Translations under genes and position numbers: made by a program
The notes under the pieces: generated by a model
Seen by the model: the letters and a program-made list of their open reading frames with translations, nothing else
What the model was told of the DNA's origin: nothing
Databases searched by the model: none
Assembly (NCBI GenBank): GCA_032718475.1
Contig: JAUCBJ010007168.1
Span: 58,386 to 122,385 of the forward strand
Direction of reading: 5' to 3'
DNA: 64,000 nt
DNA from: Nemertoderma westbladi
Taxonomy: Eukaryota; Animalia; Xenacoelomorpha
Part shown: positions 1 to 39,183 of the stretch, in pieces
Layout: each line of letters opens with the position of its first letter
Position numbering within the stretch: the first letter of the stretch is position 1

Positions 1-555
1 CTGGTAGCGTAGTTGTTGATGATTCGAACACCTCGCCAATATCGGTTCGGGATTTTCCTTATTCAAACGCATCGGAATCGCATTTCGTTGTTCGCGCATA
101 CAAGAACCGCATTGATAATAAAGTTTATAAACTGAAAATGCTTCCTTGGTTTCTCTATCGTCCCCTCGAGTTCGTCTGTAAAGATGCATTCCATTGAATT
201 CATCGCGTACCGCGGGCATAGGTTCGTGCGCCTTTAGGTATTGCATGGTATGATACAAACGACTAATTTCAGTATCGGGGTCTTCGCTAATGTCTCCCGT
301 ATCACACAAAGCATCGTACGGGTAAAGTTCATTGAAGGTTTGGCGCAAACTTTCGATTCTTTCGTTTAATGCGTTTTGCCTTCTCTTTAATACATTCGAG
401 TCATATTTAGTTCTCGCGAGTTTCGCTGTACTTTCCGATAATTCTTTTATACCAAATATAGTATAATCCTTGGCTCCAAATCTTTCGAATGGCGCTGCTG
501 CCTCCTCTTGGATATCATATCCCCATCTCGGCTCTCCTTGTATCCCTTTCTCCAT
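1..555 (-). CDS. Accessory ORF2 of BEL element 1: unknown protein with C-x2-C-x23-C-x2-H motif, open to the window edge (>=185 aa)
   Basis: Manual translation from ATG 555 with no stop to base 1: MEKGIQGEPRWGYD...ALNERIESLRQTFNEL...DPDTEISRLYHTMQYLKAHEPMPAVRDEFNGMHLY...KLYYQCGSC...ARCSNHQQLRYQ. Homologous to the ORF at 24097-24843. Confidence 0.85.
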   Translation of the reverse strand, partial: MEKGIQGEPRWGYDIQEEAAAPFERFGAKDYTIFGIKELSESTAKLARTKYDSNVLKRRQNALNERIESLRQTFNELYPYDALCDTGDISEDPDTEISRLYHTMQYLKAHEPMPAVRDEFNGMHLYRRTRGDDRETKEAFSVYKLYYQCGSCMREQRNAIPMRLNKENPEPILARCSNHQQLRYQ

Positions 556-1215
556 AATTAGGGTGTAGTTACATAATCATTACTACTAGAGGGAATACAA
601 CAGAGTTTGTAGTTAGTTGTGAGGAGACGTGAGAGTTTCGTCTGCCCTTTGGGCTCGACAACGCTCTAACCTCCTACCCATAGCCTAAGATCTAGGGTTT
701 CTTTAATGACACGCTGCTTCTTATCTAAAATTTTTTGCCGAAATAAAAACGAATTTTGGGCTAAACTGGCCGTGAGTCTAAAATACTCACTTTTTGATCC
801 CAAACTATTATCAGAAAATAAGCAGTCAAGAATTAGTAATAAATATAGGGGAGTCTATTTTGACGTAACTTATTGAAACAAGACCGTGTAAAATTTAATT
901 AAAATTTTAAGAAAGGCTCGCAAGTCTTCCTCTCTTGTTTCTCTAATTTTAAGTTCCACCCGACTGTACCCTGAAATCTATTCACTGGAGAAAATTTTTA
1001 AAAATTTTTCAAATCCAAATGGATTGTCTAAAATTTCGAAAATGTCTCAATATTGTGAGTTCCAAGTAGAATTCCATTTCTTATACCTACAAATCCCGCT
1101 CCTATGTGACACATAAGGGTACTACCCTCAATGTTCACATATAAAGACAATGGAATTCTACCGCTGTCCTTACTACGGTGTACAGGTACGTGGAAATCTA
1201 TTTGTAAACTCCTAA

Positions 1216-4200
1216 TTATTTACTAATACTAGTTGGAGATTTGTAGTCTCCAGACTCATTACGAGTCTCTTCAAGAAGTACGAGACGTTGAGTCGGTCTG
1301 TCTACTGTACGACCGTCAATTGTCCGTACCGTCACAGTTCTTGTCACTCCATCCATAGATGGATGTGTGGCTAAAATTACACCTGTTATCCAGAAGCGTC
1401 TTTTTAGATTCACTTCCGCTAACAGCACGTGATCTCCCGGCTTTAATGCGCGGGTGTTATTGTACCAGTTTGTTCTGGCAGAAATAGAGGGCAAATAATG
1501 GTTTTGCCATATTTCCCAGAATTTGTTAGCCAGTAGTTTCGTGATTTTCCACGCTTTTCTACCGTAGCTGTCGCTTTCTATTGGAATAGAAATCGGCGTC
1601 AAAGTGGTCGGTGCCTGCATTAGCAGGTGTGCCGGTGTCAAAGCGAACTGAGATTGTTTGTCATCGGGTACTAATACTATTGGTCTAGTATTTAGTATTG
1701 CCTCGATTTCAACAAACAATGTTGTCAGTTGGTCGTCTGTTAATATGTGGTTTACTGGAATGACCTTTGCCATGGCTGTCTTTATAGATCTAATCAATCT
1801 CTCCCAGACTCCGCCTCTCCAAGGACTATCTGGAGGGTTGAACTTCCAAACAATCTTGTGAGGTTGTAGTTCGTTCGAGATTTGATCATGATCTAATTTC
1901 TTAAAGGCTCTAGCAATCTCATTCCGAGCACCAACAAAGTTTGTCCCTTGGTCTGAATACAAGCATTTTACTAGTCCGCGTCTAGCGATAAATCGCCTCA
2001 GTGCTAGTATAAACGCGTTGGTGGAAAGATCCATCACACGTTCAATATGAACTGCCCTACTGGACATACATGTGAAAATCAGTCCCCAGCGTTTTACTAG
2101 TATACGTCCACGTTTCGTATGTATGGGACCAAAGCAATCAATTCCAGTCTCTGTAAAAGGTGGTCTGAATGCTTGAAGTCGTGCTTGTGGTAGTTCACTC
2201 ATTTCTTGGGTACCTATTCTAGAATGTACCTTTTTACAAATAATACACGTACGTGTCACTGAACTTAACGCTTTACTGGGTCTAATTAATACAAATCTTG
2301 TACGTAAGTAGGAAAGACAGTGGTGTCTTCCAGCGTGTTTCAGATGTAAATGTGCGTCCAGTATCATTGCACGTTGTAGTTCGTGGTGTTGCGGTATTAT
2401 TATTGGGTACCTAAAGTTTGTGTTAAAGTCAATGTTTTGAAGCCGAGATTTATGACAAAGTAAGCCATTATAAATAATCGGACTCCAACTCAGTATTGGT
2501 GACGACTTGATTGGTTGACCTTGATTTATGGATGTGAATTCGCGCGCGAAATATCGCAGTTGGTAATGGCGAATTAATTTAATCTCACATCTGTCAATCT
2601 CAGCCAATGTAAGTCGACGTGTAAAGTCACGTTTGCCTTTAACGTATTGTACAAAACGTACAATCCACGCTAATTTTCGGCAAACGTTTGTCCAAGAATC
2701 TGTTATGTTTACAATACGGTCGACATGAGTATTTGTGACGTCATCAGGTAAGTCAATTGAGATTTTGGAAGGTTTTGAATTACTAGAAGGGCCCACGGGT
2801 CCGCCGGTAGGTATTCCCTTGTTGACTGTTGATCCGTCCGGGTCTACAAGTAATTTGTCCTTCTTTGTCTTCTTACCTTGATTGTCGGTACTTTGTAAGT
2901 CGATCGTTAATGGTGGTTTGAACTCTATGGGATCAGTGGGTTTCGGTAAACTAATTTTTCTGCCGATATTAATCCCAGGTTTCACCATAGGTTGCAAGTT
3001 CGGTATGTCTCTTGAGCGCAAAGTAACACCTGTATTTACATTAGCGTAGGTACTACCCACATCTGTAATACATGAGGTTTCACCGTGGTTGCTCAAGTGT
3101 GTCAAAATTGATAGTTTGTCAATACAAGGCCGCTCCAATAGGGAAACTGCGGCTTTACTGTTAGTCGATAAATTACTAATGTCCGGTAGAACATTTTGTG
3201 ATGTTTCTGACAAAATGTCTAGTCGACTGTCTAGTAATGTGTCTGGCGATACGTCTGGTAACGTATCTGGTTGTTTGTCAATAGAAGGCCGCTCCAATAG
3301 GGAAACTGCGGCTTTACTGTTTGTCAATACATTACTAATGTCCGGTAGAACATTTTGTGATGTTTTTGACAAAATGTCTAGTCGACTGTCTAGTAATGTG
3401 TCTGGCGATACGTCTGGTAACGTATCTGGTTGTATGTCAATAGAAGGCCGCTCCAATAGGGAAACTGCGGCTTTACTGTTTGTCAGTACGTTACTAGTGT
3501 CTAGTAGAATGTCTGGTTGACCGTCTGGTAACGTGTCTGGTTGACCGTCTGGCAATATGTCTGGTGTAGAAAGGCTCGCAAGTCTTCCTCTCTTGACCTT
3601 TGAAGTTATATCTTTCCATTTCGCCTTCGGTTTTTTCTTGAGTTTTGCCGCCGTCGTCCTTTTCTTTGTCTTCCCCTTTTTTGGTTTCTTGATTTCGGCG
3701 TCCTTGGGGATGGTGTTAGATTTGTTGTCGTATAGTGGCGGCCAATGTAGTGTTGAACCTTGTAAGAATTGTGGTCCGTGTTGCCAAAATTCTTTGTTCT
3801 CCGGTTTACAGAATTCCTCAGGCATCATTCCTCGCGACGCAATATCAGCTGGGTTTTGTGGTCCGGGACAATGTCGCCAATCCCCTTTTATTGAACGGTC
3901 TAGAATTTCCGCGCGACGGTTAGCAACGAATGTCTTGAATTCGAGTGTGTCGTTGTTTATGTAAAATAAAACCAACGTCGCGTCAGTCCAATAAAATATC
4001 TGTAAACTCGACTGTAGTTCTGTCTGTATGAGGTTCACGATGGTGGTTGACAGGGTTGCGGCTTGTAGCTCGGCTCGTGGTGTCGTCATATACTTAGTAG
4101 GCATGGTCTTAGCCTTAGAAGTAATGAGCGAAACATCGAACTCGTCTGAGTCTACTTGTCTGCGCAAGTACGCTGCCACACCAAAACCGTTGTCACTGGC

Positions 4201-4898
4201 GTCAGAAAAACAGTGTAGTTCCAAGTTGTCAGGAAATGTACTTTGTAATGGAAAGTAAACCCTGGGTATGGAATAATCCTCTAGCGAAGATAATTCCGCC
4301 TCCCAGGTCTTCCATAAGTCCACTTGGTCTGATGAGATCGGCTCGTCCCATGTTAGTCCATCCTTCCATATACTACGCATATAAATGCGGGCTTGCAGTA
4401 TCACTGGACTGATGAATCCTAACGGATCGAACAATCGGCTCAACTTTGACAAGCATGATCTCTTTGTCAGTGTGTTCTCTTGACTGTCCAGTCTCACTTT
4501 CACTCGAAAGTTGTCTGTGTTTGGGTCCCAAAAGAGCCCTAACACCTTAGTCGTCGGTAGTGGTTCGAACTCTAGGTCTATGTCACCACCTCCACGCTCA
4601 GTCGTCCCGAATGAGTCTACTAATTCGGCACTGTTTGAGGCGAATTTGGTGAGGTTAAAACCTCCGCCCGCTAAGCAGTCCCGTAATTGATGTGCTACTG
4701 TTGTAGCACGTTCTACTGTGTCGCAACTCTGTAAACCGTCGTCTACATAAAAGTCACGCTCCACAATCCTAATTATCTCTGGGTCATACAGGTGTTTCTG
4801 ATCCCTAGCGGCCTGCTTTAGGGCGTACATCGTGCAATTTGGGCTGTCTCTGGCACCGAAAACGCGAACTTGCATTTGGTAAGTCGCCGGTGGTAGAC
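1216..4898 (-). CDS. pol: BEL element 1 gag-pol, 3' part (RT C-half, RNase H, integrase)
   Basis: FYVDD, FSDAS, PRAELQAA, HCPGPQNPADIASRG and DDE integrase motifs. In frame with 6456-11598 once the TTAA insertion is removed. Confidence 0.95.
3120..3560. repeat. In-frame 159-bp tandem repeat (~2.4 copies, 53 aa) plus short PDGQPD repeats between RNase H and integrase
   Basis: aatagggaaactgcggc recurs at ~3137, ~3296 and ~3455; protein unit SNVLTNSKAAVSLLERPSID..PDTLPDVSPDTLLDSRLDILS. Confidence 0.9.
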
Positions 4899-4902
4899 TT
4901 AA

Positions 4903-6455
4903 CCCTATTAAACCCGGGGGGGGGTCAATATGACCCCCCCGTGGTTTTTTTATTATAATTCTGAAACAAACGCAGTTGGGAATCTGAAACTTTCTGACTT
5001 TTCCTAAAAATCTATTATCTTCCTAGTAGTGAAAACCGTTTTCAAAAATATTGCGTACTTTTTGAGTTATAGCACCATTTTTTAACCCTACTTTTGGCAC
5101 TTTTTTTGAGACGTTTTTTGAAAATTACATTTCATTAAATATGAATTGTAACATCTCTATTTTTGATTTACACCGGTTTTTTGGTGTTAGAAATTGGATG
5201 GAATTCATATAAATTGATTTAGAAATTTCAAACTTGTTTTTTTCGGTGGGTGCCAAATTTTGGTGCCAGCACCAAATTTTGAAATATGTCAATTTTGTAA
5301 ATTGATTATTTGAAACTTGTTTTTTACGCAATTGGGGTTTTTTGTGGTTCTGGATTCGATGAAATATATACGAGTTGCACTAAGCGTATCAAACTTGTAT
5401 TTTTCGGTGCTGTGTGCAAATTTTGGTGCTAGCACGAAATTTTGAAAATCCATTCAATAGATAAAATTGCTTGTGACAATTTATTTCTTGCGTTTTAGAG
5501 GTTTATGGCTGTTCTGAATTCAATGGAATATATAATTATCGAACTAGACATCTCAAACTTGTATTTTTCGGATGTGGGTGCAAAATGTGGTGCCAGCACC
5601 AAATTTTGAAAACCATCAAATATATCAATTGATTGTGTCACCTTGTTTCTTGCGTTATACGGGTTTGTGATGGTTCTGAATTCAATGGAAGCAGTAAAAA
5701 TTTCATAGGAGTTCTCAAACTTGTATTTTTCGCCGTTGGGTGAAAATTGTTGTGCCAGCACCAAATTTTGGAAAATATGCAAATTGATCAGTAGATAGTT
5801 TCACCTTGTTTCTTGCGTTATACGGGTTTATGGGGGTCCTGAATCCGATGGAATCAATAAAAACAGCACTGGACATCGTAAACTTGTACTTTTTGGTGAT
5901 GAGTACGAAATTTGGTGCTAGCACCAAAATTTGCCAAATTACGCCGAAAAATACAAGTAGCAATGATCTGGCATATTTGAAATGTATTCCAATAGAATCA
6001 GCGCCCTCGAAAACCTGAAAATGTGAATTTATAGCATCGTATAAGTGAATTAAAAATTTTGTGTTCTAACTGAAAAGTGCTGGTTACTTGTTTTTTTCAT
6101 TTTTTTCCTACGCAGAGAGGTCTAAACCGCCATTTACAGCAATCATATCATTTTTAAATATTTTCCGATGTATTTTGCACCCCAGAAAACCTGTATTGAA
6201 AAATAATTTGCCGAAAATGTAACTTTCAAATTTTGTGAAAATTGTGCACTACTTGTAATTTTGGTGCTGCAATATAACCACCCCAGTACATTTTTTCGAA
6301 ATTTTTTTTTTTCGGTCGGATCCAGGCAAGTGATATCTACGTACAAACAAAAAATCAGACGTTTTCGTAAATATTTGTAGATTTTAGAGGGAGGGGTCAA
6401 TATGACCCCCCCCCCCGGTATTTGTACAACATTTTATAGCCCGGTACTAATAGGG
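4903..6455. mobile_element. Non-autonomous piggyBac-type MITE (1553 bp) inserted in the RT of element 1
   Basis: TTAA at 4899-4902 and 6456-6459; termini CCCTATTAAACCCGGG / CCCGGTACTAATAGGG; subterminal palindrome ggggtcaatatgacccc at both ends; internal ~162-bp repeats (~5230, 5391, 5555, 5717, 5881); no transposase ORF. Confidence 0.92.
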
Positions 6456-9400
6456 TTAAGTCTCCTTCCGGGTACCAGAGGAACCGCAAACTGTCTCTGT
6501 CTCGCTCTAACGCTCTCACTTGGTGAAACATCGCTTCAACGTCACAAGTAAAAGCTACTTGACGCTGACGGAAGCGCATAATCACCCCCATTAGATAATT
6601 ATTCATGTTTGGTCCATCCATCAACTCACTATTGAGGGACATTCCCTCAAACAGAGCCGCACAGTCGTTGACTACGCGTACTTTGTCTGGTTTATCGGGG
6701 TGTCTCACATAGTGATGTGGCAAGTAATATGTTTGGTCAGTCACTATCTCCGGGTTCGTCATTCGGATAGCGTATCCTTTAGTCAAATACGTCTCCATCT
6801 GGGTGTTGTACTGCAGATGGGCTTTCTCGTCCTTTAATAGACGTTGCCGTATTGAGTGTAGACGTCTCAAGGCTAGTGGATAGTTGTTTATAAGTTTAGG
6901 ACTTTGGCTACGCCATAACATCCCTACCTCATAATGTCCGTCTTTCGTCTGGTGGATAGTATCTTCCATGATCTTCAGAGATTGTTTCTCCTGTTCCGAC
7001 ATACAAGGTTCGTAGCTACCAGGTTCAGCTGTATCTTGTTCTAACCACCTGATAGTCTTCTCCGTTAATTCCTTGTCTAGTACAGCTTGTTCCAACTGAT
7101 GATTTCTCAACGCGTCATCATCGATCTCGACGGGCACTGTTGAGGTTATTGGGGTAGGTAGACTCGCAAGCCTATCATCTGTCGTCGATGGAATCTCTAG
7201 CTGACTCGTCTTCTCCCCAAGTTCTAAACTCCGCTGGTGGGTTAGCTGCTCCTTGTGACTTATCATACTAGTTACACGTCTGTTATGTTTTGTCGACTGT
7301 AGTGTAGTATGGTTCACGTCGTGTGAGAAGGAATGAATTGAATTTGTAGTTAATAAACTACATGTACTCTGTACATCGTCTTCCTCGTCACTTACGTCTA
7401 GTGTGCGCACAGGCGCTCGAGTATACCACCCTATCGGCGTTCTGCAGGCGTATGCGTTTCCCACTACGACTGCCGATGGTCTGGTTTCCCACACCTGATG
7501 TAGGTTGAATTGGTCTGTCCCGATCAGCATTGCTACCGATCTATAATTGACAGGACATTCGGGTACACCAAGGTGTCTGAAATACTTACGGTCCTCTAGA
7601 GATTGTTCCGGCACTGGACCTAGTAGGTTACTAAAGTCCTTCGTGGCCGCAAAGGTTAGATCTCTAAAGGGTAACAAAGACCTCTCCCTCTCGCTGTGCT
7701 GCGATTTTGGAAGAAGAGAGTCTAAGTCCAACTTAACTCGTGTCACTGGTATTGCACGCTGTCCGTGCATACTACTTACTGTATAACTGACGTGCTTACC
7801 TTGTTTAAGATCCGTCACTACGTCAGCTATCTTTTCATCCACGTAGCTATGAGATGAGGCTGAATCTAGAATCGCGTAGATCCTCTTACTCCCCTTTGTG
7901 CCAGTGATCTTAATCGGGATTACACTGAATCCCTTCAGTTGGTCAGTGGTCAGAAGCGCGATCGACGGTTGTTCGTCTCCATTGGAATATTCGTCGTCTT
8001 CTGATTCTTCGTCCGACGATCCGGATTGTTCTGAGAAGCAATCCTCAATATGGGTCACGAAGGTTGGAGTCGTTTTCGATTCTCGTTTTCGGTAAGCCGC
8101 ATCACATCTCGCTGCTGCTTCCGGGTGTTCCCTGGCGAAGCGTTTCGTCGGCGTGTGGCTGTCTGTGTGGAGCAGACCGTCGTGGTTGCGTCCGCAGGAT
8201 GGACAAGTGTCGGTATTTGGGCAATCTTTACGGACGTGTCCGTGTCGCGTACACCGCCAACAAGAGTCCAATGGCCATATTTGCAGCCGTCGTTCTTCCG
8301 AGTTCAACTCGCGAAATTGTCGACAACCTCGTAACTTGTGACCGATATACCGCTTGCCTAGATGCTCGCAGTATTGGCAGCCGCTGAAGTCGGTACCGAG
8401 TTGTTGTCTCGTCTGTTTTGTCCCAATGGGCGCAGATACCCTACTACCGTCCGAGAATTGTCGTGATTCCGTCGGTGTGGTGTAAGTGGCCGTCTTAGTG
8501 GAAGTTGTCTGGGGTTTTTGTCGGTTGGAGGATGGCAATGTGATCCCTTCTGCCACGATGTGCTGGTCGGTGTAGTTAGATCGAGTTTCTACTACCGCCT
8601 CCCTGGATATTAAAAGGTACACATCTTCTAATTTTAAGAATCCTCCCTGCTCTTCTCGCTGGTATTCGACCTTCCTCCACTCCCGACGAAGTCGATGGTG
8701 GAGTCGTCCTATGATCTTTAATAGGACTGTAGGGGTATTCCCGTAATCAAGTTGTCCAATGGATCTTAAAGTTGTGATAGCGTTCTTGATCTCGTCAGCT
8801 AGTTTTAATAAGTCGACGGGTTTAGTGATAGCCCCTCCCTTACAGAGTTCCTCTATTACTGACCTGGCCATACTAACTGTACCTCCGTATATCGAAGTTA
8901 AACGATCGTACGCTAGTTCGAAAGCGTCCGGTACACCGACGAAAGTCTCCGCCAAACGTTTAGGTTCTCCTGACAATGTTTGAAGCAGGTAATTAAACTT
9001 CTCCCGTGATGTAAAGGCGCACACGGCGATCTGGGATTCGATATAGTCTACGAAAGTATGCCAGTGTTTTGAGCTACCGGAAAACTTCGGTGGTTGTTGT
9101 ACCGGCAATCCCTGTCTGGCTGCGAATTTCGCTATCTCCTCTGCAACGTTCAGAGTTTCGCGTCCTTGGTTGGTAACCTTGTTGATATCCCTTCTTGGCG
9201 CTTTTCCCTGATACGATGTGGGGTTTGAAGGTACCGGTCTTTGTGGTTCCTTCGGGTGTCTATTGTGTTCGAATTCGGAATTTCCCGAACTGTCGGTATA
9301 ACCTTCCTCTAGACGTTCCTCGATCTGAGCCAACTTGTTAACAACTGGTCGCAGAATGTCGGCGAACTGTTGTGTACTAATTGCGTCCGTTGGTTGTAAC

Positions 9401-11598
9401 GCCTTCTGTGTTGGTGTATTCTGTGGAGGATTGTCTGCAAAGGAGTTGTCTGAACGCTCGCGTTTGTATTCATCGGCCGCCCCTGTTCTAAATACCTCGC
9501 GTTTCGGGTAATCCGATTCGCTCGAAGTACTACTATCATCCGGATATGGTGGTCGACGTGCTCGCGTTCGTTGCGTCGTTCGAATTCTAACGTCCCGTTT
9601 CGGAACATCGTCCACTGATCTCCGTTGTTCGGTAGGCTCACAAGTCTTCCTCGAAGTTGTAGATTGCGATGTAAATTGGTTGAACGGTCGCGTATCTGTT
9701 CTCCGTTGTTCGGTAGGCTCACAAGTCTTCCTCGAAGTCATAGATTGCGATGCAAATTGGTTGAACGGTCGCGTATCTGTTCTCCGTTGTTCTGTAGGCT
9801 CACAAGTCTTCCTCGAAGTCGTAGATTGCGATGCAAATTGGACCGGTAGTCGAGTAACGGCGTTTGAATCCAAAGGCCTTGTTGGCCTAAACGTCATTGG
9901 GTAAGCGTAGTGTGTAACGGGTTTTGGCGTCAGAGGTGGACTCACCTGTTTAGTCGTCAGTAATACAGGTTCGACTAATAAACTACTACGATCTGTAATC
10001 GGTGGGTTACTTACCTTGACTTTTGGAATGGGCGACGACGTTGCTCTTGGCGGTGTAAACTCGTCCGGAATAACAAACCTGTGTTCCGTCGCACCATGGA
10101 TAGGAGAAATGTTACTACTACCCGCAATCGAAACAGGTTCCTTAGTCGTAACTGGTGCAAACATATGAGTTACCTGTGGGAATCGTTGACACAAGTCCTT
10201 TACTAATTGTCGTTCCCGTCCGGGTGCTCCTACGCTTCCTTCTTTCTTTCGTTCCTGAATTTGGCGATGTCTTACCTCTATCTGGTCCAAGTCATGTCCG
10301 TCTCGAGATCTCATCGATCGATCGCGGGCTTGTAGATCTAGGTCTTCCTTGGCGTTGGCTAATTCTCTCGCCTTCTTCTCGAGTTCGAAACGAAGTTTAA
10401 CTTCTTTCTCGCGTTGTTCCGTTTGTTGTTGTTGCGCCTCGAGTTCCGCTTGTCGTATAGCTGACTGGGCCTTTATTTGCCGTGTCTTCATTTCTGCTCT
10501 GGCTTCTAAAACTAACCGGTTTCTCTCTAACTCCGCCGCTGCCGCTGCCGCTGCCGCTTGTCGCTCTGACTCAGCCGCTGCCGCTGCTGCTGTTTGTTGC
10601 GCAATGTCCAACTCTAACTTTTCCATCTCGGCTGTTTCCAACTCGGCTTGTTCTTGCAGATGGGAGATTCTTGCTATATTTGCAACGCGTAGCTTCTCTT
10701 CCTCTGCAGCTGCTTGTAGCATTAGAAGTTGAGTTTGTTCCTCCCACTCCTGTTGTTGTCTGTAGAGCTGTTGTTGTCGAGCAATTTCTGACGTAGCCAT
10801 ACTTCCCTCGCCGATTTCGCTACGAATACTCACCAGAGATTGATCCAGTATTCCCGGTGCCGATTCGATTCGTACGGGTGAAGTTTCCCTCGTATATTCC
10901 GGCACGGTTTCCAAATCGCCGATGTCTTCGCCGCACATACGTAAGTGGTCCGTCAGATGTTTCAATTGTCCATCCAGTCGGTACAGTTCCTGTTCTTCCT
11001 CGGGCTGTAATAATTCGTCCGAAACTGACTCACCTAACAACTGGTCTGCTTGTTCCTGTTGTATTTGTCTAATCGTCGACTTAAACTGAATCAGTTTCTC
11101 TCTAGCGATCATTAGTTTCTCGAGGATTCTAAGTTGAGTATCCATGTCCTGTCTCTGTCTAGCTAGATCTTGTAGGCCAACTAGATTATCTACGGACTTA
11201 TATACTTTACTCTGTACTCTAACCTGGAGGGTGTAGAATTCGAATCGAGACATCGGAGCGGTCAACCCGTCTAATATGCGTTGGCCTTCTCCAATACTCC
11301 TGGTAATATGCGCCATATAACCACCGACGCTCCTAACAACGCTTTCCTGACTTCCTACTGAACTTACCATGTCCGATTCCCTATATCTAGGTTGCGGAAC
11401 AGTTAGAAAGTCCTCGGTCCTGCCGTCGCCTCGTACTACGGCATCCGGTACTCCCGTTGGATGTACTGGTGACGCACACGGTGTAGGTTCGGTAGGCTCG
11501 CGAGTCTTCCCCTGTTGTTCTTCCGCTGCTGACTTATCCGCGTCACATGAGTCATAGTCAGTAGGTGTATTCTTCGTATAGTCTTGTTTGTCACTCAT
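6456..11598 (-). CDS. gag-pol: BEL element 1 gag-pol, 5' part (coiled-coil Gag, zinc knuckles, aspartic protease, RT N-half)
   Basis: 1733-aa ORF: PPKFSG..W, LLQTLSGEPK, triple knuckle, ILDSAS, YLPHHYV, DVEAMFHQV, LRFLW. The last ~18 aa of the listed ORF are MITE read-through. Confidence 0.95.
9620..9840. repeat. In-frame 81-bp tandem repeat x~2.7 in gag
   Basis: aggctcacaagtcttcctcg at 9634, 9715 and 9796; peptide QFASQSTTSRKTCEPTEQRRTDTRPFN. Confidence 0.9.
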
Positions 11599-13650
11599 TT
11601 CGGTAGTTGTAAGTCAAGTAAAGTGAGTGTCAAAGTATCAAACTTACCGTATTTTATCTAAACGGTACTAATTACAGTCTTATAAAATTAGCCTAAACGG
11701 CCAATTTTACAGCAAATAAATGTCACGGAATAAGTATATAATAAAATTAGCCTAGCGGCCAATTTTATAACAAATAAATCGGATAACGATATGCGTTATC
11801 AAAAGGTAAATTAAATACAATAATACGGACTAATTCAGCAATGAACAAAGAAATCGTACGGAATGCATAAATACTTGAGACAGTGGAACCCACAATAATT
11901 TTAACTAATACGGTAATGCCTAACTTATTTATGCAACCTTTCGAACTCACCCACTCCAATAATTCTCCAGAAAAACAGATTCCCAGATACAAACCGGACG
12001 TGAACCTTTCCGTTTTTAACGTTGCGGACGAAGCGCGATTTTCCCAACCAAAGTTGTTGAGTTATCTATCTCCCAAACTTGCTAAACACGGTCTTGCTCC
12101 CGTTACAGTCTAGAAATGAGTTCTGAATCCTGAAAAACAAAAGAGTTAGGTTTTACTTTACGAAAAATTTTGTACCGGTACAATATGGTATTTAAACCCT
12201 TTTAAACACCGGTATTCAATTCCAAAAATATTTTACACGCGATTCAAATCAAATTTTATTTCAAAAAATTAGCACTTAGCTAATCAAATACAAATTTTAC
12301 CTCAAAATACAAAATTTTCAAATAACTTTAGTCCTACTGAACCGTAGTTCAGTAAAACATATTCCTACTAATTGAAGAGACAGCAACAATACCTGCAATA
12401 TCCTACTGTAAAGTTTGTGAATCAAATCATAAATCCGACCTTCTCACCAAAACAGTAAACTCTACGTAAGCGAATATATTGCAGTATCGATCTCTTATAA
12501 CCGGTGAGGCAGAAAACAGTCTACGAGCAGACAAACTTCGATAAAACAAAATCCCGCGCAGCGAATCCTAAAATCAGGCTGACTCACTGACGGACTAAGA
12601 GGCTCGTATACTTTGCCGCGGTGTGATTTATATGGTTGGGCAAAGGGACACTAGCTAGGTACAGAGGCAGAGATTTGGAGATGTCTAACTAGCGAGCAAA
12701 GTGCAGTAAGGACGAAAGTTAATTTTATATATTTTGAGGTGTAAATAATTTCTAACGCGCGTGTTTTAATTCTGAACGGTCAAAGGCAGTTTTGCTCCTT
12801 CACATATATAATTACTGGGTACGGTGTGCATTTTACGAATATTCTAATTTTGTAACTTGTAGGTCCAATACTCACGAATGATAAGGTTCCTTCCCCTCTT
12901 GCGTATTTCCAGGACTCAAATTCAGGCATAAGGTTAATACTACGCCCAGAATTCGGCAATTTTAGGTACCAGGTCCCTGATACTAAGAAGAGATGTGTTA
13001 GTTTACTACTGTAGGCGTACGGGTACTAATAGCTATCCTGGCTCCTATCTAGAATTTTAGTCACCCAGGTAGTCCGGGTAACTTCCTATTAGGGCGTTGG
13101 CGGGGACACGGTAGATGTTAGTATATCCCTGATAGCCTCAATTTATTTGCGCCTAGTGTAAACTGCCCTACCGCCTGAACGGTACAATCCCAATTCAGGT
13201 GAAAACACAATAACCCTCCTAGCCTACAAGTTCTGATGTAATGGACACCGTTGTACGGCAAATAGTCACAGACGCACCTGTACTTAGCAAGAGTTAAGCG
13301 TACAGTTTGCTGCACCCTAACCAATTTGTATGCTTCGTACCGGTGTGCCTACGTCCTATCTGCGTACTAGTATCTCTGCTCTCTCTCCCTCCCGTAGGAA
13401 TATGAAGGTCTACTGCGGTTTTTCCTGAATCAAGACAGTACAGTCCCTATGATGTAATTTTAGGCTTACAGCGTGTCACTACGTCTACCTTTTGATCTTT
13501 TGGTCTTATACTTAGGTAGCAAGGATCGAACGCTGTCTAACCTTTCAGGCGATGGGCGAATAACTCTAGATGGTATTGCGGGTTATCTCTCGTCTACATT
13601 CCCCCGATGTTCCCGTTCATTACTGCGGCCCGATCTCTAGCCGGCCATCC

Positions 13651-14294
13651 TGTCCCTGAGTTTGTTCACCGTAGTGAATCCATAGTAAAACAGATAGAAA
13701 AGCTGAGAGAATATTCTGACTTTATTACAGAAGATACAATTATAATACAATGTAATCTGAGAATAAACTAAGCACGACAGAATATTGATAAGATAATCTG
13801 AGAAAGATTGAGATATAAGATATAGTGTTTTAATTGATAACTAATGAACAAATCGCGCCTTTATATACTAAATTTGTGCCGCAATCAATCGAGAAAATTC
13901 TCGATTGTTCTATAGATTCTAACAAGGTTTTAAAGATAGCTATTGGTCCAGCTAATATATAACTTGCACGACATTGGTTACAATCAAATAACTACAGCCT
14001 CATTGGTACAGACAAATGCAATTAATTTGTAGCGGTTAATTTAAATGAGTTGAAATTCTGCACAAAAAATAATTCGCACTTACTAGGATTCGAACTCAAT
14101 ACCTACTACACATATAATTTCCAACGCTCTACCGACTGAGCTACTGAACCACTTGACCGATAGATGTACAAATGATAGAACCAATACGAATGAGAACTCA
14201 AAGCAATCTTTACAAAGTTAATTCGAATAAAAAATAAATTTTGAAAATCCACGGCATTTAGGGAATATAATTCTATAAGATATATGATATAACA
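13651..14294 (-). promoter_or_regulatory. Probable 5' LTR / Pol II promoter of element 1 (boundaries uncertain)
   Basis: Minus strand, in order: three CCAAT (~14005, ~13978, ~13946), TATATAAA 13867-13860, Inr-like TTAGTT ~13844, AATAAA 13726-13721. TG..CA end candidates at 13651/13663 and 14294/14710. The partner LTR is outside the window. Confidence 0.5.
14064..14150 (-). ncRNA. tRNA-like Pol III unit (A box, B box, T6 terminator); not a foldable tRNA
   Basis: GGTTCAG-TAGCTCAGTCGG-TAGAGCG...GAGTTCGAATCC followed by TTTTTT (14069-14064); acceptor stem does not pair. Confidence 0.65.
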
Positions 14295-14792
14295 GCACAG
14301 TTGTTCGAAATGATATAGCGGTAATACGATATAATATAGTGAGATAGAAGCAGTATACCGGTAATGGTGGTGACGGTGGTGAAGACGGTACTAAATGTCA
14401 CTGGTCCCCACTGTGTGACTGAGACGACTGAATGGGGCACAAGCACTAACCGGTAATATATATATTGGGTATCTCTACTCTAGCTTGGCCTTACTACTCT
14501 TTTCGTTACTCTCCCCTCCCATTGGTTGTTACTTTCCTCTCCCGGAGGTTTAACCTCTGACCTCCCTTTGTGTGGCCCTTCGGGGTTTGTTGTCCCCGTT
14601 TATTGGGTGTGTGATACGAGGTTAATTGGGGATTAACCTCGTATCCCCAATATTGCTTAAAGGCGCCACTTCCCATGGGGGTTGGTGAGGCGGAATTGAA
14701 TCCGCTCACAACCTTGTTTTATTGATGTCTACCTTGTTTTATTTTATCTACCTTGTTTTATTTTGTATACCCTGTTTTATTGTATAAAATTA

Positions 14793-18342: not shown

Positions 18343-19020
18343 TTTGTAGATCAGGTATTGATTGATTGATTAGATACAATGGCAAAGTTATAGCTTAAAC
18401 TAGTAAACTTTAATAATCTTGATTTCAAAAAAACTTAAAAAAAATGGTTGATATACTAAATGTTTCGTAAGTTTTATGAATTATATAATAACAAGTCCTG
18501 TATTCTAACTTTGTAATATATCATAGCTTGTACGTTTACTGTATGCCCACAAATATGAAGGAATATAGTTTTGTTGTATAAGTAACCACCGCCAAACCGC
18601 TGACCTAATCTTTCAGTTGATAAGCCTTTCATAATATAATACAGTTAAATATTGGCAGCAATTATTACTGTATAATTAAATACCAGTGGAGGTTAATTAC
18701 ATTATATTACTGGGGTCAACTAATGCCTAACATGCTGTATAAGAAGTTAGTAGGCCTATATTTTCTATTCGCAATAATGTTACTGGAGCCAAGAACTTGC
18801 CCAGCTTTGTAAATCCTTCTCTAATTATTAGTATAGGAGGACAAACATTAATTAATTAACGGCCCCAATAATAATTGATATAAACTAATTAATATAATTA
18901 AAATGTTAGTGGTTCATATAGGAAGGAAATAAATATAATGTAGATTTATAAATAAAAATGTAGAAAGTTACAATTTAAGTAGATATTCAATTCCCTGAGA
19001 TACAGCAACATGTTGCTAAT

Positions 19021-23657: not shown

Positions 23658-23692
23658 TGTTCGCGCTTTTAGACCTTTAGCAGTTTAACCCG
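23658..23692 (-). repeat. Residual terminal 35 bp of the element 2 3' LTR
   Basis: tgttcgcgcttttagacctttagcagtttaacccg is identical to 37932-37966. Confidence 0.9.
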
Positions 23693-24917
23693 TAAAGCTA
23701 ATTCCTTCACCGCTTGGACTTGTTGCTGCAATTTGCGTTTCTCTAAACAATCGTAAGTTTCTTTTCCGATCTTTTGCCGAATAGCATCTAACGCGTTTCG
23801 TACAACGCTCTCCTCAACTTCCGTGACAGGTTGTATCGGGTTTAAACCGGGACGATTGTACGGGTTGAACGGCGATATTAGATGCCCGCGTCCCAATCCG
23901 GCTAGATAGGAAGGGCGAATATCTAGCAAGCCCACTACCGGAGTGCCACCGATTAATTGTTCGGGTAACAAAAGATCTTTAAATAGTGAGTACAGTTCAG
24001 GGGGATCCGTTATACTATTAGGATCAAGAGTCTGAGGTCTCACTAAGGAATGAGGAGGTCTGACCGAGTATTCCGGAACTCTGATCATGGGTTTATTTAA
24101 GGATCGTCTGAGTTGAGCGAGCGTAGGTGATACATTGAACAAGTTTCGCTCGAAACTCCCATAAGTATAACGAGTAAAACTGTGTTTAGCGCAACGTCTC
24201 CGCGGATGTTATGTCTTTCGGTTTGCTGGTTGGGTCTAGGGCATTCGTTGCAGTAATACCAAAGACGCACGTCCTGCAGATGAAACGCGGGTGATCGTTC
24301 TCCAGTTTTACAATATTCCTCCATCTGTTCGAAGCTATCTGGAACGACAGGTAGCGGTCGATCGGCGGTAAGATACATCATAGTGAAATAGAGCCGTTTG
24401 AGTTCTATCATAGGATCATGATGTATACCTTGAGGATATCGAGTTTCTAGATTTTGTTGGCTGGCGATGTTGAGATATGTTTCTCTCAAGAATTCCAGAT
24501 ATTCGTTGAAGTCGCTGCGTTTATCCGGCTCTTCAACGTCTTCTCTTTCGAGTCGGTTTCGAATAGAGTTCTCGTGTTCGATTCTCGTTTTATCGTTCCG
24601 ACTCCGATGGGTATGATATTTAAAGAGAACCATTTCCCTTTCGGTGTCTACATCGTCCGTATCGTGTAAATCGATAGGATGGCCAGTAGTTAAGAAGTCC
24701 ATATACGTACCATTACGATGCGTGTAGCGAGCGGTGAATTTTCTATAGTCCAATTCACGCGTGAGTTGCTCCTGGGACATTGGCGGTTCGATATAATGAC
24801 CATCGTCCTCTGTAGTAGTTGGACCAGCGTCGCCGCGTATCAAGCTATCAACAAACGCTTGTAACGGTAGAGGTATCGCTCCCTGATACCAAGATCATCT
24901 TCTATCAACTCAGTCAT
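23693..24917 (-). pseudogene. Accessory ORF2 of BEL element 2 (frameshifted; ORFs 24097-24843 and 23669-24142 are one gene)
   Basis: DFNEYLEFLRETY...DPMIELKRLYFTMMYLTADRPLPVVPDSFEQMEEY...RLWYYCNEC, then after a frameshift at ~24208-24194 RRCAKHSFTRY, in frame with 23669-24142. Plausible ATG at 24917 behind another frameshift. Confidence 0.85.
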
Positions 24918-26622: not shown

Positions 26623-29600
26623 TTACGTTAGGGAGTCCCTAGATGTTTGTTGAATTAGGGAGGTGGTCGTGGGAAGAAAATCTTGCCTTCCATAGTTTCC
26701 GGAGAGTTCTCTGTCTCTTTCCAGTAAACATGAACGACCAACTGGGCGATTGAGTTGTTGTGTTTCGAACACAATTCCAGGTTTCTTAAAGTTACGTCGC
26801 ATGACGACAAGTTCTACCGTTCGCACCAAACCATCATCTGAGATATGAGTCTCGATGATACGACCTGTCTGCCACCGCTTACGTGGAAGATCTGATTCCA
26901 CAATAAGGACCATGTCTCCGGCGCTGACGTTTTCTTGCTGCGCAAACCACTTAGTTCGAAGTTGTAGCGTAGGCAGATAATGTTTTTCGAAATGGTCATC
27001 AAAACGACGGGATAACAACTGCATAAGTTGCCAAGTTTGCCGGCAGTATTCGTCTCCGTCCGTGATTTCTGATCGTGGGAGCATGGCTACAGGTTTCTTC
27101 AGTAGGAAGTGCGCGGGTGTTAGCGCTTCCAGGGAATCGGGACTCGATGAGACTGGCATAAGCGGTCTCTCGTTGAGATAGGCGGCGATTTCCTCCATTA
27201 ACTTCCGCAAAAGTTCGTCGGTGAGATACGCGCGGCACGGCACTATAAAGTGAAATGCGGTCTTCACGCTCCTAATTAATCTCTCCCAACTTCCTCCCCA
27301 CCGAGGGGCGTCGGCGGCGTTGAAGGTCCAGCTAGACGCTGTTACCCTTAGCTGATCGTCCACCTGTCTTTGGTTCCAATCTGTGACGTAAGCTTTGATT
27401 TCATTGTTGGCACCAATGAAGTTCATTCCCTTATCAGATCTCACCGTGTTACTAGTTCCAAAGCGAGCGATCTATCGGCGTAAGCTCAGTATGAAGCTGT
27501 TGGTAGATAGATCGTTCACCATATCGAGATGGATAGCTCTACAAGTCATACAGACAAAGATGACACACCATCTCTTGACTATAGTCCTAGCACGATATAC
27601 TTCAATAGGGCCAAATAAATCCACGCCGGTATTAGTAAAGGGTGGTTCATAGAAGCTTACGCGTTCCCTAGGTAATTCTGCCTCTCGCTGTGTTAAAGGC
27701 CTACTGAATGCTTTCCTACAGGGTATGCAGTTCCTAAGAACTTGGTTCATAGCTCTACGGGGTTTATGAAAATAATAGCGAGTTCGAATTTCGCTAAGAA
27801 CTCGTTCTCTACCAGCATGGTAAAGCTTACTGTGAACATCTACAATCATCTTGATTTGTATTTCAAGATTTCTAATGAGTATGGGAAACTTAGTGTCAAA
27901 GGATAATGGAGCATTAGTTAGTCTTCCTCTAACGCGTATTAACCCATCTATCATTGTGCTAGAGAAACGATCCCTTAAGCGCATCTGTGGATTTCTCAAC
28001 AACAGAAAATACTTATCGGAATACTCATAGCATTGCAGGAGTCTCAGTATCTGCTTATTGGTTTCTTCATGCTCCTGGTAACTGATCTTTTCCTTCAGAA
28101 ATCTGTCTGATATCTTGTATTTGGGAAGATCTTTAACAACATGGACCTGCGCAGATGTCAGTGGAGCAGTATCACTAGCGATTTTCTTTCTGGAGTAATG
28201 ATAATGAAAACATCGCTTCAAATATGCAATGGCCTTACAGAGCCGATTCCAGGAGCTATAGTGATGTATCGCTCTTTGCAGGAGGGGTGAGAGTCCCTGC
28301 GAGACGTCTGGTGTTCCAGATTTCCAATCTCTCTGTCTGATTTCCACAACAGTCTTCTTTGTTGCTGGGAATTTTGGATCCAAAGCGTCGTCTCCGGAAA
28401 TGTGCAGTACAGACAGATCTATCACTGGTTTAAATAACTTCGATTTACTCGCCCGGGTTTTAGGTTTGACTTTCTCCGCTCCCTTGGCTTGTCTAATCTC
28501 AGCCGTGGTAAGATGAGGAGGCCATTCATCTTCTTCCTTGCTTAGGAAGTCGGGTCCACCTAACCAGTCTGGAGTATCTATCAGTTCTTGTGGAGTTGCT
28601 CCTCTGGAGGCGATGTCGGCTGGATTAATCGTCCCAGGGCAATGTCTCCATTGATCTATCTTCGTGCGACTAAGTATAATGGCTACTCTGTTGGTAGCGA
28701 AGACGCTGAACTTACAGACTTCATTGGTTATATACTCCAACACGAGTAAAGCATCGGTCCAATAGACAGTTTTCTCCAGTGGATAGTCGATCTGTTCTGT
28801 TACATTCCGGCCGATGGCTGTAGTGTATAGAGCCGCTTTTAACTCTGCTCGAGGAACTTTCAGCTTGTTGTTTATCAAAGCCTTAGAGGTAACCAAGGCG
28901 AGCTTAATTCCATCCGGAGTTTCAACCCTCAAGTAGGATACTATACCTATTCCCATGTTGCTGGCGTCTCCAAACACATGGAGTTGATAGGAATACGTGG
29001 GGAGAACGTGACCAAAATATGAACGGGAAATAATAAAGTTCTCGATGGAAGGTAGAGAATCTTCCCATTTCATCCAATTCTTTAGCAGTTCTCCCTTAAG
29101 TGGATCGTCCCATGAGTGGTTTTCAAGCCACATTTGTTGTACTAAACTCCGAGCAATCAATATAACTGGGCTAATAAATCCCAATGGATCGAAATAAGTG
29201 CTCAGGATACTTAGACAAATCCGTTTAGTTCGAATTGGATTATCTTGCTGTTTTAACTGGAAAAACAGGATATCTCTCTCCGTGTCCCATTTCAAACCAA
29301 GCGTCTTGGTTTCTGGAAGATTGTCTTTGATAAGGTCTAGATCTTTAACTCCTCGGTCTTCTACTGGGATCGATTCCAGAAATTCACTGGAGTTACTGGT
29401 GAATTTAGTTAATCGAAATCCACCTCTTTTCAAGCACTTTACCGTTCCCTTGGCGACATCAATGACTTCTTCCACCGATGGGAGGGATTTTAAATTGTCG
29501 TCTATGTATATATCCCGTTTGATGTTGTCGATAACCGCTTTAGAGAAGGCGTCCCGGTTGTCATCAGCAGTGGTGCTCACTACTGAGCAGGCGTTTGAGG

Positions 29601-32600
29601 AGCTCGAGATGATCCCAAAAGCCTGGATGGTCATCCAGTACTCCACTGGTTTCTGGTTGAGGTCTCCTTCAGGCCACCACAGAAATTGTAGGCTATCTCG
29701 ATCCCTATCCAGCGCCTTAACTTGTAAAAACATGCCTTCTAAATCCGAAGCAAAAGCGATCGAATATTGTCGTAATCTTAAGAGTATTCCCAACAAGGAT
29801 TGGAGTAAGTTGGGTTCCGCCAACAACTCTGAGTTAAGGGATTGGCCCATGTAAAGGGCGGAGCCGTCAAATACTACCCGGACTTCGTTGGGTTTACCGG
29901 GTTTGGGAACGTAATGATGTGTTAAATAGTACGTTCTCTCAGTTATGGGTGTTTCTTCCAGTACTCGCTCCGCATATCCCTTGTCAATGAATTTCTTCAG
30001 CTGGGTCTTGTACATCTCCTTCGCCGAAGCATTTGCCGTAAGGTGTCGATGTAGTTGCGCGATTCTCTTCTCCGCCAAGGGTCGGTTATTTATAAAATTG
30101 GGTTCTCTCCGTCGGAAAGGCAGGCCAATCTCATACCTACCTTGATCTTTAAGAAAACGTGTGGTCGTTTCCTGTATCTGCTTGGCTCTTTCTTCTTCTA
30201 CCGATAGGGCCTTATCGTAGGAATTAGGCTCTATAGCTTCTTGAGTAAAGAATCGTACGGCATGTTCATCGCAAGTCTTCGTTGTTGTAACGATCTATCA
30301 CTTCATTCAGTTCGTCGCTGTAATCGACTTGTCCCGCTGGATGGATGAGGTGACACAGGTTCACTTGGTTTTTCCAAGTTTCATTTTCCGTAAGGAGGTC
30401 GATGGTATTCTCCTCGTCGAATAGTTGATGAATATCGTCATTATCTGAGGAGTATGGTGTTCCCTCAGGTGTATCGTCTCCCTCACTGATTTCCTCTTCC
30501 CATTCACTCACCTGGTGGACTTGATCTTTAGGTGGCCTTTCCATGAGTGTCCTACGGGAAGGTCCAGTAAAGTACCAACCTACTCTAGTTCTTCCCGCAT
30601 AGGATTGCAGTGGTTGCGGTTGAGCAGGCCGTTTCTCTAATGTCTCCAACGCCTCATGCGCATTTTGGCCGATGAGTATTTGTACCCCTGGGTAGTCGGT
30701 GTTGAATCTAGGTATATCATGCTGCTGGGTGAAATCATCTTCATCCCAGTTATAAGGTTCCACTTGGCTGGTAGCGAAGTTCTTTATCGCCACCATTTTT
30801 ACTGACCTTACACTGTGTTCTCCTAGTTTATCCTGGGGGGTGGACAACGCGCCTACATAGTAGTTTGTAGCTACTGTAGATTTCCAAACCTGCATAATTC
30901 CTGAAAGGTTCAACTTAGTTCGGAACTTGGGTTGTCCAGCAAAAATGTCTTTGGCTAGTTCTTTGTCGATGAATGTTCCTGTGCTGCCGGAGTCAAGGAG
31001 GGCGTTCACTATATAGCTCTTTTGTAACCCGTGGACTCTCAACTGCACTACGGGAAATTCTCGGATTCCTACGTTGGAAGTTGGCGCTTTCCAAGATGGT
31101 TGTCGATCAGGAATAGTTAGGGGGAGCTCACTATCAGTTTCAGTCTCATACGTAAGTGCTCGATACACTGCGGTGTTTATCATATAGCAGGATTCGTTTT
31201 CGTCGGAGAATTTGTCCGTATAAAATCCTTCCATCGCAGAACTGTGGTCAGTGTCGTTCACATCACTGAATTGGACATGTAGTTCGGACTCACTTACCTG
31301 ACTCGGGCTGTTTCTTTCAAATTCGGTGTGCAACAAGATATGATGTTTCGCGCCGCACTTAGCGCACCTAGCATCTGAGTAACAGGACCGCCGTTGGTGT
31401 CCTCGTCTGAGACAATTATAACACAACCGCTTATCCCACATGACATCACGTCTATCCTTAAGGGATTTCTTCAAGAATTCATCACATACACTTAAACGAT
31501 GGGGCCCGTCGCACAGCGCACATTTTGGTTTGATGCTACTTACTTTAACTTGGGTAGTGTTGTGCACACTCGTTCTTTCCTCGGGCTTTCTTCCATGAAT
31601 TATCTTAGGAGACGTAGGAGGAGTTTTTGTTACCTGTTCTCTCCTGTCACTTGTTCGAGACTTAAATTTACTTATGTCTTTAGGTGTTTTGTTGACATAG
31701 TAAGACCTTTTGGTGTCTTTCCCGCTGTTCTCCTCTTGAGAGGTTTGGCATTCGCCGTTGTCTGTATAACACACTGGTGTTACCTTTCTCCTAGAAACGG
31801 GTTTTACACTCACCTTATTTTCCGGTGTCTTCTCTCGGGACTGCTTTAGGAGCTGTAATTTCACCTCTCCATTTAAGAATGACATGAGATCATCCATGGT
31901 AGGGTCTCTTTGTTGTTGTTCCATCATATATAGAACTCTTTTGTCCCAACGAGTACCCACTCCACCCTTTGGCAAGGTAGATGCTACAGCTCCAATAACC
32001 ATAGAACTCTGATATTCATGAGACTTACCTAGCCAATCTAATTGTCTACAGATCTCCTGGATCTCATCGGAAAATTCTATAATCCCGCTGCTAAGAAACT
32101 TTCGGGGCGCTACCAATTTCGCATACAAATACCTAGCTATGTTAGTCCTATTACCATACCTGATGTTCAGTGTATCCCAAACTTGTCTTAATCCATCTGG
32201 ATGTCCAATAAACTTTAACGCCATTAACTTGGGAGATCCTTCCAAGCACTCGATGAGGAATCTAAGTTTCTCTCCGTTAGATAGTATGTTATCTTTATAA
32301 TATTCATTAAAAGGTAACCATTTCATCTCATCTCTGTTGAACTTGACGATCTCTCCCACCTTTACCGCTTGACGGGCTTCGGTTCTAGCCATTTGATGCG
32401 TAAAACTTTCTTGGGCCATCGTATTATTTAATATCGAGTTATCGGTATATAAATTTCTCGGATTATGATCAGGTCTATATGGAATATCATTATCAACAGG
32501 TTTATAATTACCCTTTATAGGGTTTATTATAGGAGTTTCTACTTCACTAGCAGTATAGATGCGTGTAGGCTCCACACCTTGCGCATGAAATACTTCAGAC

Positions 32601-35012: not shown

Positions 35013-35048
35013 GTTTGATTGTACAGTTGAATGCCTACTACTATAACA

Positions 35049-37931: not shown

Positions 37932-39178
37932 TGTTCGCGCTTTTAGACCTTTAGCAGTTTAACCCGCTAATTTTAGGTGTCTTCTAGTTTATAAATCGAC
38001 TTTAGCCTATAACAAGTATTTGTTGCATATAAGATATAAAGTTACACTAGCCGAAGCCAGCCTATGCGCGACCATTCACCCACTGTTAAGGGAGACTGGA
38101 TTCGGAGGCTCTGACCTTATTGCGGTGTAGACTTACGGTACTATTCGATTGATCGTTAATATATAATCTCTGACAAATATTATTTATTTTCGGGAAATAT
38201 TAACAGTTCCTTTAGGACGTGGCGCTCTAAGTATGTAAACAGAGTTATGACTTACACTAAACACAATGGGATGGCTAGTGATTTTCGTATAAAGCGCATT
38301 CTTTAGGAAATGCTTTGTTATCTGTCACACTCATGCACACTACCGCACACTGCTGCACACTGATCTGCTGACCTTCACTGAATTTGATCATATATAAAGA
38401 GAATAGCAACCGACAAATGTAGGGATTATGAAATAGCATTCAATTCACTCAAAAACCACTATAATGTAAGTCGCAATTGCTACAGGTAACCGGTCTCTCT
38501 AACTATCATATACTATATATACTATATATACTATATATATATCTTGATATACTATCAAGAAGATTGGGGTTTTATGATCATTTATCGATATTCTCCAAAT
38601 ATAACAACATATCCATCAACTTCTAACAATTAATAACCGACAGTGAATAGCAGTAAAATAATGCGGTGAAAGGTATGTATAGTATTATATATTATGGTTT
38701 GCTGAGCCGTGTCAGGTGTCAGGTAAGATAACAGTTATACGTTCCTATAATCAAAGCCGTCGAATGTTTTGCTAAAGTCTGAAACTAAGAATAATTCCAA
38801 AGCCGATGTTCTAGGCTCAGGAAAAAGGTAAACAAAGACCGTCATGCATTGCGCGATTTCCCATAGGCTTCTGTACAATATAAAATCAAAATCGCCCTGA
38901 TTGGTCGAGCGAGCCGAACAAAGAGAGTTAAAAGCTCCACATTGACATCAAATCAGCTGATAGATTTCGTCATCGGAACTATACTGTATTAAGAGTATTT
39001 GGCGCATTGCGGCATAAAATGGCTTGTTATGTCCGCTAAAGTACACATACAGAAAAAATGGCTTTTTATGTCCACTAAAACACCTACACAGTAAGAAAAC
39101 GGCTTTTTATGTCCGCTAAAACACCTACAGAGTACTTTGCGGGGAGAATGACTAGTTATATCCGCAAAAGCCTTTACA
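37932..39178 (-). repeat. 5' LTR of BEL element 2 (1247 bp)
   Basis: Sense TGTAAAGG...CGCGAACA; homologous to 23658-23692 and 62912-64000; ~38-bp repeats at 39015-39130; CCAAT ~38900. Confidence 0.9.
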
Positions 39179-39183
39179 GCCAA

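Follow-up and report, generated by a model that had tools for sequence, protein, structure and literature searches.

A conserved open reading frame downstream of pol in two large BEL/Pao retrotransposons of Nemertoderma westbladi, probably expressed from a spliced message

The window that we analysed, a stretch of 64,000 nucleotides of Nemertoderma westbladi DNA, contains two BEL/Pao retrotransposons, both on the minus strand and both with Pfam matches to DUF1759, Peptidase_A17, Integrase_H2C2 and DUF5641 (Table 1). Each carries a further open reading frame after pol, which we call ORF2. In element 1, ORF2 begins at ATG 555 on the minus strand, 660 nt downstream of the pol stop (1216-1218), and runs for 185 codons without a stop to base 1, the window edge. 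The first-pass annotation had described the frame in the same way, and all of the peptides that it quoted are present. Within the window we found no second LTR of element 1, whose 3' end lies outside. One contig of run X1 extends about 1,390 nt beyond the window edge at ORF2, and in three runs ORF2 was covered together with pol as a multi-copy family. The RT of element 1 is split by an insertion that we take to be a piggyBac-like MITE; it is non-autonomous and high-copy, with inverted termini and internal 163-nt repeats. A joint that skips the insertion (4898/6456) was present in four of four runs, which makes a single gag-pol frame probable in other copies of element 1. Between the A17 domain and the integrase of element 1 lies a low-complexity insert with 159-nt tandem repeats (window 3050-3600), through which the frame stays open.

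Table 1. Features of the two elements in the window.
Feature	Position	Strand	Basis
Element 1 ORF2, very probable accessory gene, first 185 codons; exits window	1..555	-	ORF and sequence analysis
Splice-acceptor-like site, pyrimidine tract, AG at 587-586	586..612	-	Joint 585/11951, context
3' part of element 1 pol, with the C-terminal segment of RT, Pao A17 domain, integrase H2C2 and DUF5641	1216..4898	-	Pfam PF05380, PF18701, PF17921
High-copy insertion, 1,557 nt, TTAA ends and terminal inverted repeats; splits RT	4899..6456		Joint 4898/6456; ends
Element 1 gag-protease-RT N-terminal part	6457..11598	-	Pfam DUF1759, zf-CCHC; translation
Splice-donor-like site GG/GTGAGT, GT at 11950-11949, about 350 nt upstream of gag ATG	11945..11952	-	Joint, context
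Probable 5' LTR of element 1, TG...GAACA, AATAAA near 13,725; boundaries inferred	13665..14710	-	Sequence
Last 35 nt of element 2 3' LTR, fused directly to ORF2 through deletion	23658..23692	-	100% match to 37932-37966; 94% to 62912-62946
Element 2 ORF2, broken; probable ATG 24917 behind AG-CAG acceptor-like site; C-terminus lost at 23,692	23693..24917	-	ORFs, BLASTP, sequence
Decayed gag-pol of element 2, with several frame breaks, a stop in frame near 27,472 and a 239-nt tandem duplication	26623..35030	-	ORFs, repeats, Pfam
Element 2 5' LTR, TG...GAACA; target duplication GCCAA at 23653-23657 and 39179-39183	37932..39178	-	Repeat and boundary comparison

Element 2 extends from TG at 39,178 to CA at 23,658 and is flanked by the 5-bp target duplication. 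The target repeat also occurs uninterrupted at 43,326-43,645, where a single GCCAA at 43497-43501 represents the empty site. Its ORF2 frame begins 1,728 nt after the pol stop, in keeping with the roughly 1.8 kb given earlier. Since it lies inside the TG..CA ends and the duplication, ORF2 belongs to element 2. This copy of ORF2 is interrupted near 24,875-24,895 and between 24,240 and 24,194, and a deletion took its end together with most of the 3' LTR. Only the last 35 nt of that LTR are left, and this remnant supplies the stop of frame 23669-24208, which we rejected as the true end of the gene. The C-terminus of ORF2 is thus missing in both copies, at the window edge in element 1 and through the deletion in element 2. 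Many further copies of element 2 have loose ends at 24,874.

Several other features were observed in the window. A deletion (24681-24890) takes out part of element 2 ORF2 in runs X2, X3 and X5, and joints in several runs show element 2 copies with internal deletions (26764-28469, 28658-30431), suggesting non-autonomous subfamilies. The segment 62912-63601 matches the element 2 LTR at 73-75% and is probably a solo LTR from a related subfamily. LTRs end in GAACA in both elements and measure 1.0-1.25 kb, and the leaders 2-3 kb. On the minus strand at 17251-18369 lies a host frame with a fibrinogen C-terminal domain (PF00147), and the frame before it contains a hydrophobic stretch; the locus probably encodes a membrane-anchored fibrinogen-related protein. 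A foldback-like element with long inverted arms of 32-nt tandem repeats occupies 15706-17191.

The ORF2s of the two elements are homologous, as had been proposed from the sequence. BLASTP aligned element 1 ORF2 to the element 2 frame 24894-24097 with 35/100 identical residues (E 5e-12), and a Smith-Waterman comparison scored 125 against a shuffle mean of 33 (sd 5), a score reached by none of 2000 shuffles. A block of 35 residues common to both is identical at 18 positions by hand count. Amino-acid identity between the elements was 35% in ORF2, 44% in integrase, 42% in RT-RH and 25% in gag-protease. Their non-coding parts (leaders, LTRs and spacers) gave no blastn match better than E 0.26, which bears out the earlier description of the LTRs and UTRs as unalignable. 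Over 94 aligned codons, ORF2 identity at codon positions 1, 2 and 3 was 0.47, 0.55 and 0.28, compared with 0.49, 0.65 and 0.29 for integrase and 0.41, 0.49 and 0.28 for gag-protease, the alignment having been made on protein, which inflates positions 1 and 2. Third codon positions of ORF2 are saturated, like those of pol. Judged from the only two ORF2 sequences known, both without the C-terminus, this codon pattern is that of long selection on the protein. Two differing sites were displayed inside ORF2, one synonymous and one not, which are too few to use.

In element 1, ORF2 is laid out as a predicted helical core followed by C-x2-C-x23-C-x2-H, with the Cys pairs at 111-100 and 30-19. The first-pass annotation took this motif to be shared, and on this point it needs correction. 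In element 2 the WYYCNEC and RRCAKH segments lie in different frames (24097-24894 and 23669-24208, respectively), and the distance between the pairs is 47 nt, about 15-16 codons across the frame break, as against 23 residues in element 1. The C-x2-H half alone gave no significant alignment between the ORF2s (614/2000 shuffles as high). The Cys3-His of ORF2 is a probable zinc site. The suggested link to THAP domains also had to be dropped. THAP domains are defined by C-x2-4-C-x35-50-C-x2-H and an AVPTIF box in the excerpted text of bioRxiv 2021.02.01.429122, and ORF2 shares with that definition the Cys-Cys-Cys-His ligand order and the final C-x2-H. The ORF2 spacer, however, is 23 or about 15-16 rather than 35-50, there is no Pfam THAP match, and no AVPTIF box follows the His in element 2; the window part of element 1 ORF2 stops 6 residues past its His.

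No transmembrane or signal-like stretch was present in the 185 residues of element 1 ORF2, in agreement with the earlier reading; the highest 19-residue hydropathy was 0.07, and the signal peptide was judged by this hydropathy scan only. The sequence is acidic to neutral (28 K+R against 30 D+E) and contains no strong basic RNA-binding or nuclear-localisation stretch. AlphaFold reached a pLDDT of 38.5 for ORF2 alone and 53.1 with two sequences, and predicted three helices in the core at low confidence. That ORF2 is not an env gene, as first proposed, holds for the sequenced part, but the element may bear an env gene further 3', where both copies are cut.

ORF2 of neither element matched a Pfam family. 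Word-seeded searches returned 62 candidates for element 1 ORF2, none at E<=0.01, and 163 for element 2 ORF2, none at E<=0.1. The sole phmmer match among 1.84 billion proteins (E 5.6e-4) was a repetitive singleton without the conserved ORF2 blocks, and we rejected it as chance. A metagenome scan with ORF2 gave 62 stretches, none confirmed, and viral contigs scanned with the integrase gave none either. PDB sequences contained no match to ORF2, ESM Atlas no usable one (only scores under 0.85), and protein searches no host homologue. The proposed fold search was run with Foldseek, and neither PDB nor BFVD held a match at E<=0.001, the pLDDT 53 model being a weak query. With the integrase, 1370 relatives were found, the best at 44%; the searched collections are thus poor in genes of the host lineage, and these blanks are no proof of novelty. 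No description of the ORF2 gene was found in the literature, with Repbase, Dfam, subscription papers and supplements outside the scope. Early papers on C. elegans Cer7-type elements are said to mention an extra 3' region.

Both elements have the gene order of Belpaoviridae, with Gag (DUF1759, CCHC) followed by PR-RT-RH-INT with Pao A17 and DUF5641. The TG..CA LTRs and target-site duplication of this family were found in element 2, and for element 1 a 5' LTR only, with inferred boundaries. By eye, no TGG directly follows either LTR end, where the family is expected to have an 18-nt tRNA-Arg or tRNA-Gly primer-binding site. A length of >13 kb without the MITE and a non-env ORF are outside the Belpaoviridae profile; size and extra ORF mark a variant, and membership in the family is unaffected. 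In an integrase tree, elements 1 and 2 were sisters (SH-aLRT 99, stem 0.61, tips 0.85 and 0.84), a grouping that could be partly long-branch attraction. This tree, made by a quick method, comprised 141 rows, namely elements 1 and 2, 79 of 80 loci and, from a list of 120 protein hits, the first 60. The named BEL/Pao groups Sinbad, Suzu, Pao, Tas, Bel, Flow and Dan had no reference elements in it.

Among 80 other BEL loci, all on metagenome contigs, none had an ORF2 homologue (best E 0.39 with tblastn and 0.36 with a profile whose element 2 row ended in out-of-frame residues). A direct repeat followed pol in 35 of the 80, within 700 nt of the stop in 28 of these 35, and many of the other 45 contigs were too short to judge. 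Some related loci also have a long ORF behind pol: those of L006, L039 and L051 are repeated gag-pol by Pfam, those of L078 and L065 are tyrosinase and DUF3504, and those of L036 and L037 were taken as gag by eye. The long ORF of L052 had no family match and is situated beyond its repeat. Two of these loci have features of their own. A BEL gag at L039:4043-6745 carries an N-terminal SAP domain. In L078, which is among the nearest tree relatives, the tyrosinase-domain frame (6549-7187) lies about 450 nt after the integrase; no LTR was found at this locus, and the frame may be a host gene or cargo.

The position of ORF2 inside the element 2 boundaries, its conservation pattern, the sister relation of its carriers and the 0/80 result at other loci uphold the earlier claim of an element-borne, selected and lineage-restricted gene. 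We conclude that ORF2 is very probably a real accessory gene of these elements, and its restriction to one lineage is supported by the two sister carriers and the 80 negative loci.

One X1 contig joins position 11,951, in the leader of element 1, to position 585, so that 11,365 nt are skipped and all of gag-pol is removed. The skipped segment has CT..AC ends on the plus strand, which are GT..AG on the element strand. A spliced subgenomic form, which the first-pass annotation had proposed to look for, therefore has a candidate in one run of uncertain type. The donor (GG/GTGAGT) is one of two consensus donors found by scanning the 2-kb leader. The acceptor (TAG/) lies 30 nt before ATG 555, and the ORF2 frame has three stops just after it, which leaves no upstream in-frame extension or signal exon. 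Less favourable to this reading are nine upstream ATGs in the spliced leader and an ORF of three codons behind the acceptor. Support for the junction consists of a single contig from one run, whose short side measures 30 letters, at a likeness of 85; the joint occurred 0 times in X2, X3 and X5, and was the only one with intron-type ends among 15 displayed of 279 joints. For element 2, no equivalent junction was present among 15 displayed of 436 joints, and a scan found no consensus donor in the leader. Tandem AG acceptor-like sites stand before the ORF2 start in each element (TAG TAG at 586 and TAG CAG at 24920). A joint at 20999-21222, found only in X1, has GT..GC ends.

Run X1 is recorded as 'DNA?', which is a guess. 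Single-copy host DNA appeared as long exact contigs at depth 21-36 in X2 and X3, and none were listed in X1. Within X1, the host fibrinogen-domain frame had a depth of 473 versus 62 for one RT bin of high-copy element 2, whereas the relation was reversed in X2, X3 and X5. Contig depth is a poor measure of RNA versus DNA nature, and we take this coverage pattern as a hint that X1 is RNA-like. Taking junction and context together, ORF2 is probably expressed from a spliced message, and a protein is likely made from its frame.

A potential model for these elements has two messages. A full-length transcript would serve for gag-pol and packaging, and a spliced form would place ORF2 behind a non-coding leader with all of gag-pol skipped. 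The genomic RNA would keep an 11.4-kb intron with a consensus donor and would have to get past nuclear retention. The ORF2 protein, predicted to be soluble with a three-helix core followed by the probable Cys3-His zinc site, could act like Rev or CERV and let unspliced genomic RNA evade splicing and exit the nucleus. By analogy, a role in RNA export or splice regulation is possible, at rather less than an even chance; the lack of a basic patch in ORF2 counts against direct RNA binding. As a whole, a post-pol accessory gene of a large BEL/Pao clade that is expressed from a spliced message and gives Rev/CERV-like export of unspliced RNA is a tentative reading, falling a little short of even.

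The same gene and spliced message could instead provide a protein that counters host silencing, acting on piRNA/RNAi or on chromatin, which we regard as unlikely. Small soluble Cys-rich accessory proteins of viruses are often silencing suppressors, both families are high-copy in DNA runs, and the missing basic patch suits binding to protein rather than RNA. No homology or fold, however, links ORF2 to a known suppressor, and 35% identity between families with unalignable LTRs is rather conserved for an arms-race protein. Less probable again is a protein that activates transcription from the LTR, as foamy-virus Tas and Tat do. In its 3' position and probable spliced expression ORF2 resembles genes of complex retroviruses; the C2CH ligand order is found in DNA-binding THAP domains, and the LTRs and leaders are long. 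Yet ORF2 falls outside the THAP definition, it matches no DNA-binding family, and the LTRs of the two families have no alignable motif in common.

There is a slimmer chance still that ORF2 encodes the first part of an infectivity factor, or precedes an env gene outside the window. The 185 residues contain no signal peptide or transmembrane segment, in-frame stops leave no room for a signal exon upstream, the roughly 400 codons available for element 2 have no transmembrane segment in the homologous frames and no env family match, and each frame has few Cys and 0-1 sequons. These findings stand against the known occurrence of BEL/Pao elements with env-like genes, the 3' truncation of both copies, beyond which env may lie, and a donor before gag with an acceptor after pol, which is the layout of env messages in the excerpted text of PMC10309623. 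Least probable of all, and very unlikely in our view, the joined form would stem from misassembly or from a DNA copy that was processed or deleted, and ORF2 would be a fragment captured from the host or from a transposon that does nothing for the element. A DNA derivative would fit the 'DNA?' label of X1, the internally deleted element 2 forms that are common in DNA runs and the single contig behind the junction, but the joint is absent from X2 and X3, where single-copy DNA is well covered, and its ends are exact GT-AG with consensus context. Against a captured fragment, no host homologue was found, and it takes long selection to conserve a protein while third positions become saturated. We rank the export role, on the analogy to known systems and with a confidence below even, ahead of anti-silencing, transactivation and an env-related role.

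The ICTV profile of Belpaoviridae describes elements of 4.2-10 kb, as against >13 kb here, with gag, pol and sometimes env, and with poorly understood replication (PMC8742986). In the excerpts of PMC3118150, PMC8220671, PMC554778, PMC13524379 and PMC2774666, the extra ORFs named for BEL/Pao are env-like genes. The env-bearing members (Tas, Cer7, roo, Atlas and those with a mosquito gB-like protein) resemble the present elements in having a further ORF after pol inside the LTRs (PMC8742986; in part also the excerpts of PMC554778 and PMC13524379) and in the layout of donor before gag and acceptor after pol as for env messages. ORF2 differs from their env genes in that the sequenced part has no signal peptide, transmembrane helix or env family match. 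No sequence match to F, gB or Gn-Gc proteins was found, the fold searches being weak (pLDDT 53 model). The sORF1 and sORF2 of the Drosophila MDG1-group are likewise conserved non-env accessory ORFs in a clade of LTR retrotransposons (PMC11952523, excerpted text). In these gypsy-type elements the small ORFs precede gag, and the same excerpt describes sORF2 as a small membrane protein of the FAST-like kind, whereas ORF2 lies 3' of pol and is larger and soluble.

The closest parallel that we considered is Cer1, a Ty3/gypsy element of C. elegans, whose Cys-rich protein CERV is made from a spliced message and solves the nuclear retention of genomic RNA (PMC10309623, as excerpted). Set side by side by description rather than by sequence comparison, CERV and the putative ORF2 protein are each an extra protein of no known family from an invertebrate LTR retrotransposon, with a spliced message, a probable one in the case of ORF2, and a Cys-rich putative zinc finger; further points in common would be a single gag-pol frame and a genomic RNA that keeps its splice sites. 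In that excerpt, cerv differs in having five exons, three of them in the gag frame, and a C-x-C-x4-C...C pattern, whereas ORF2 belongs to BEL/Pao, stands by itself 3' of pol with a non-coding leader in front, and has C-x2-C...C-x2-H. These elements raise the question of how an invertebrate LTR element with a strong donor retains and exports its full-length RNA, and the exact junction coordinates make it directly testable. If a conserved non-env gene is indeed expressed from a spliced message, Belpaoviridae would have complex expression in the style of retroviruses, together with a new protein family. More doubtfully, a giant 'complex' clade of Belpaoviridae may have evolved its own Rev-like gene, with a new Cys3-His finger family and a spliced message, independently of retroviral Rev and nematode CERV. 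If so, the splicing and export control of complex retroviruses would have arisen in a third family of Ortervirales.
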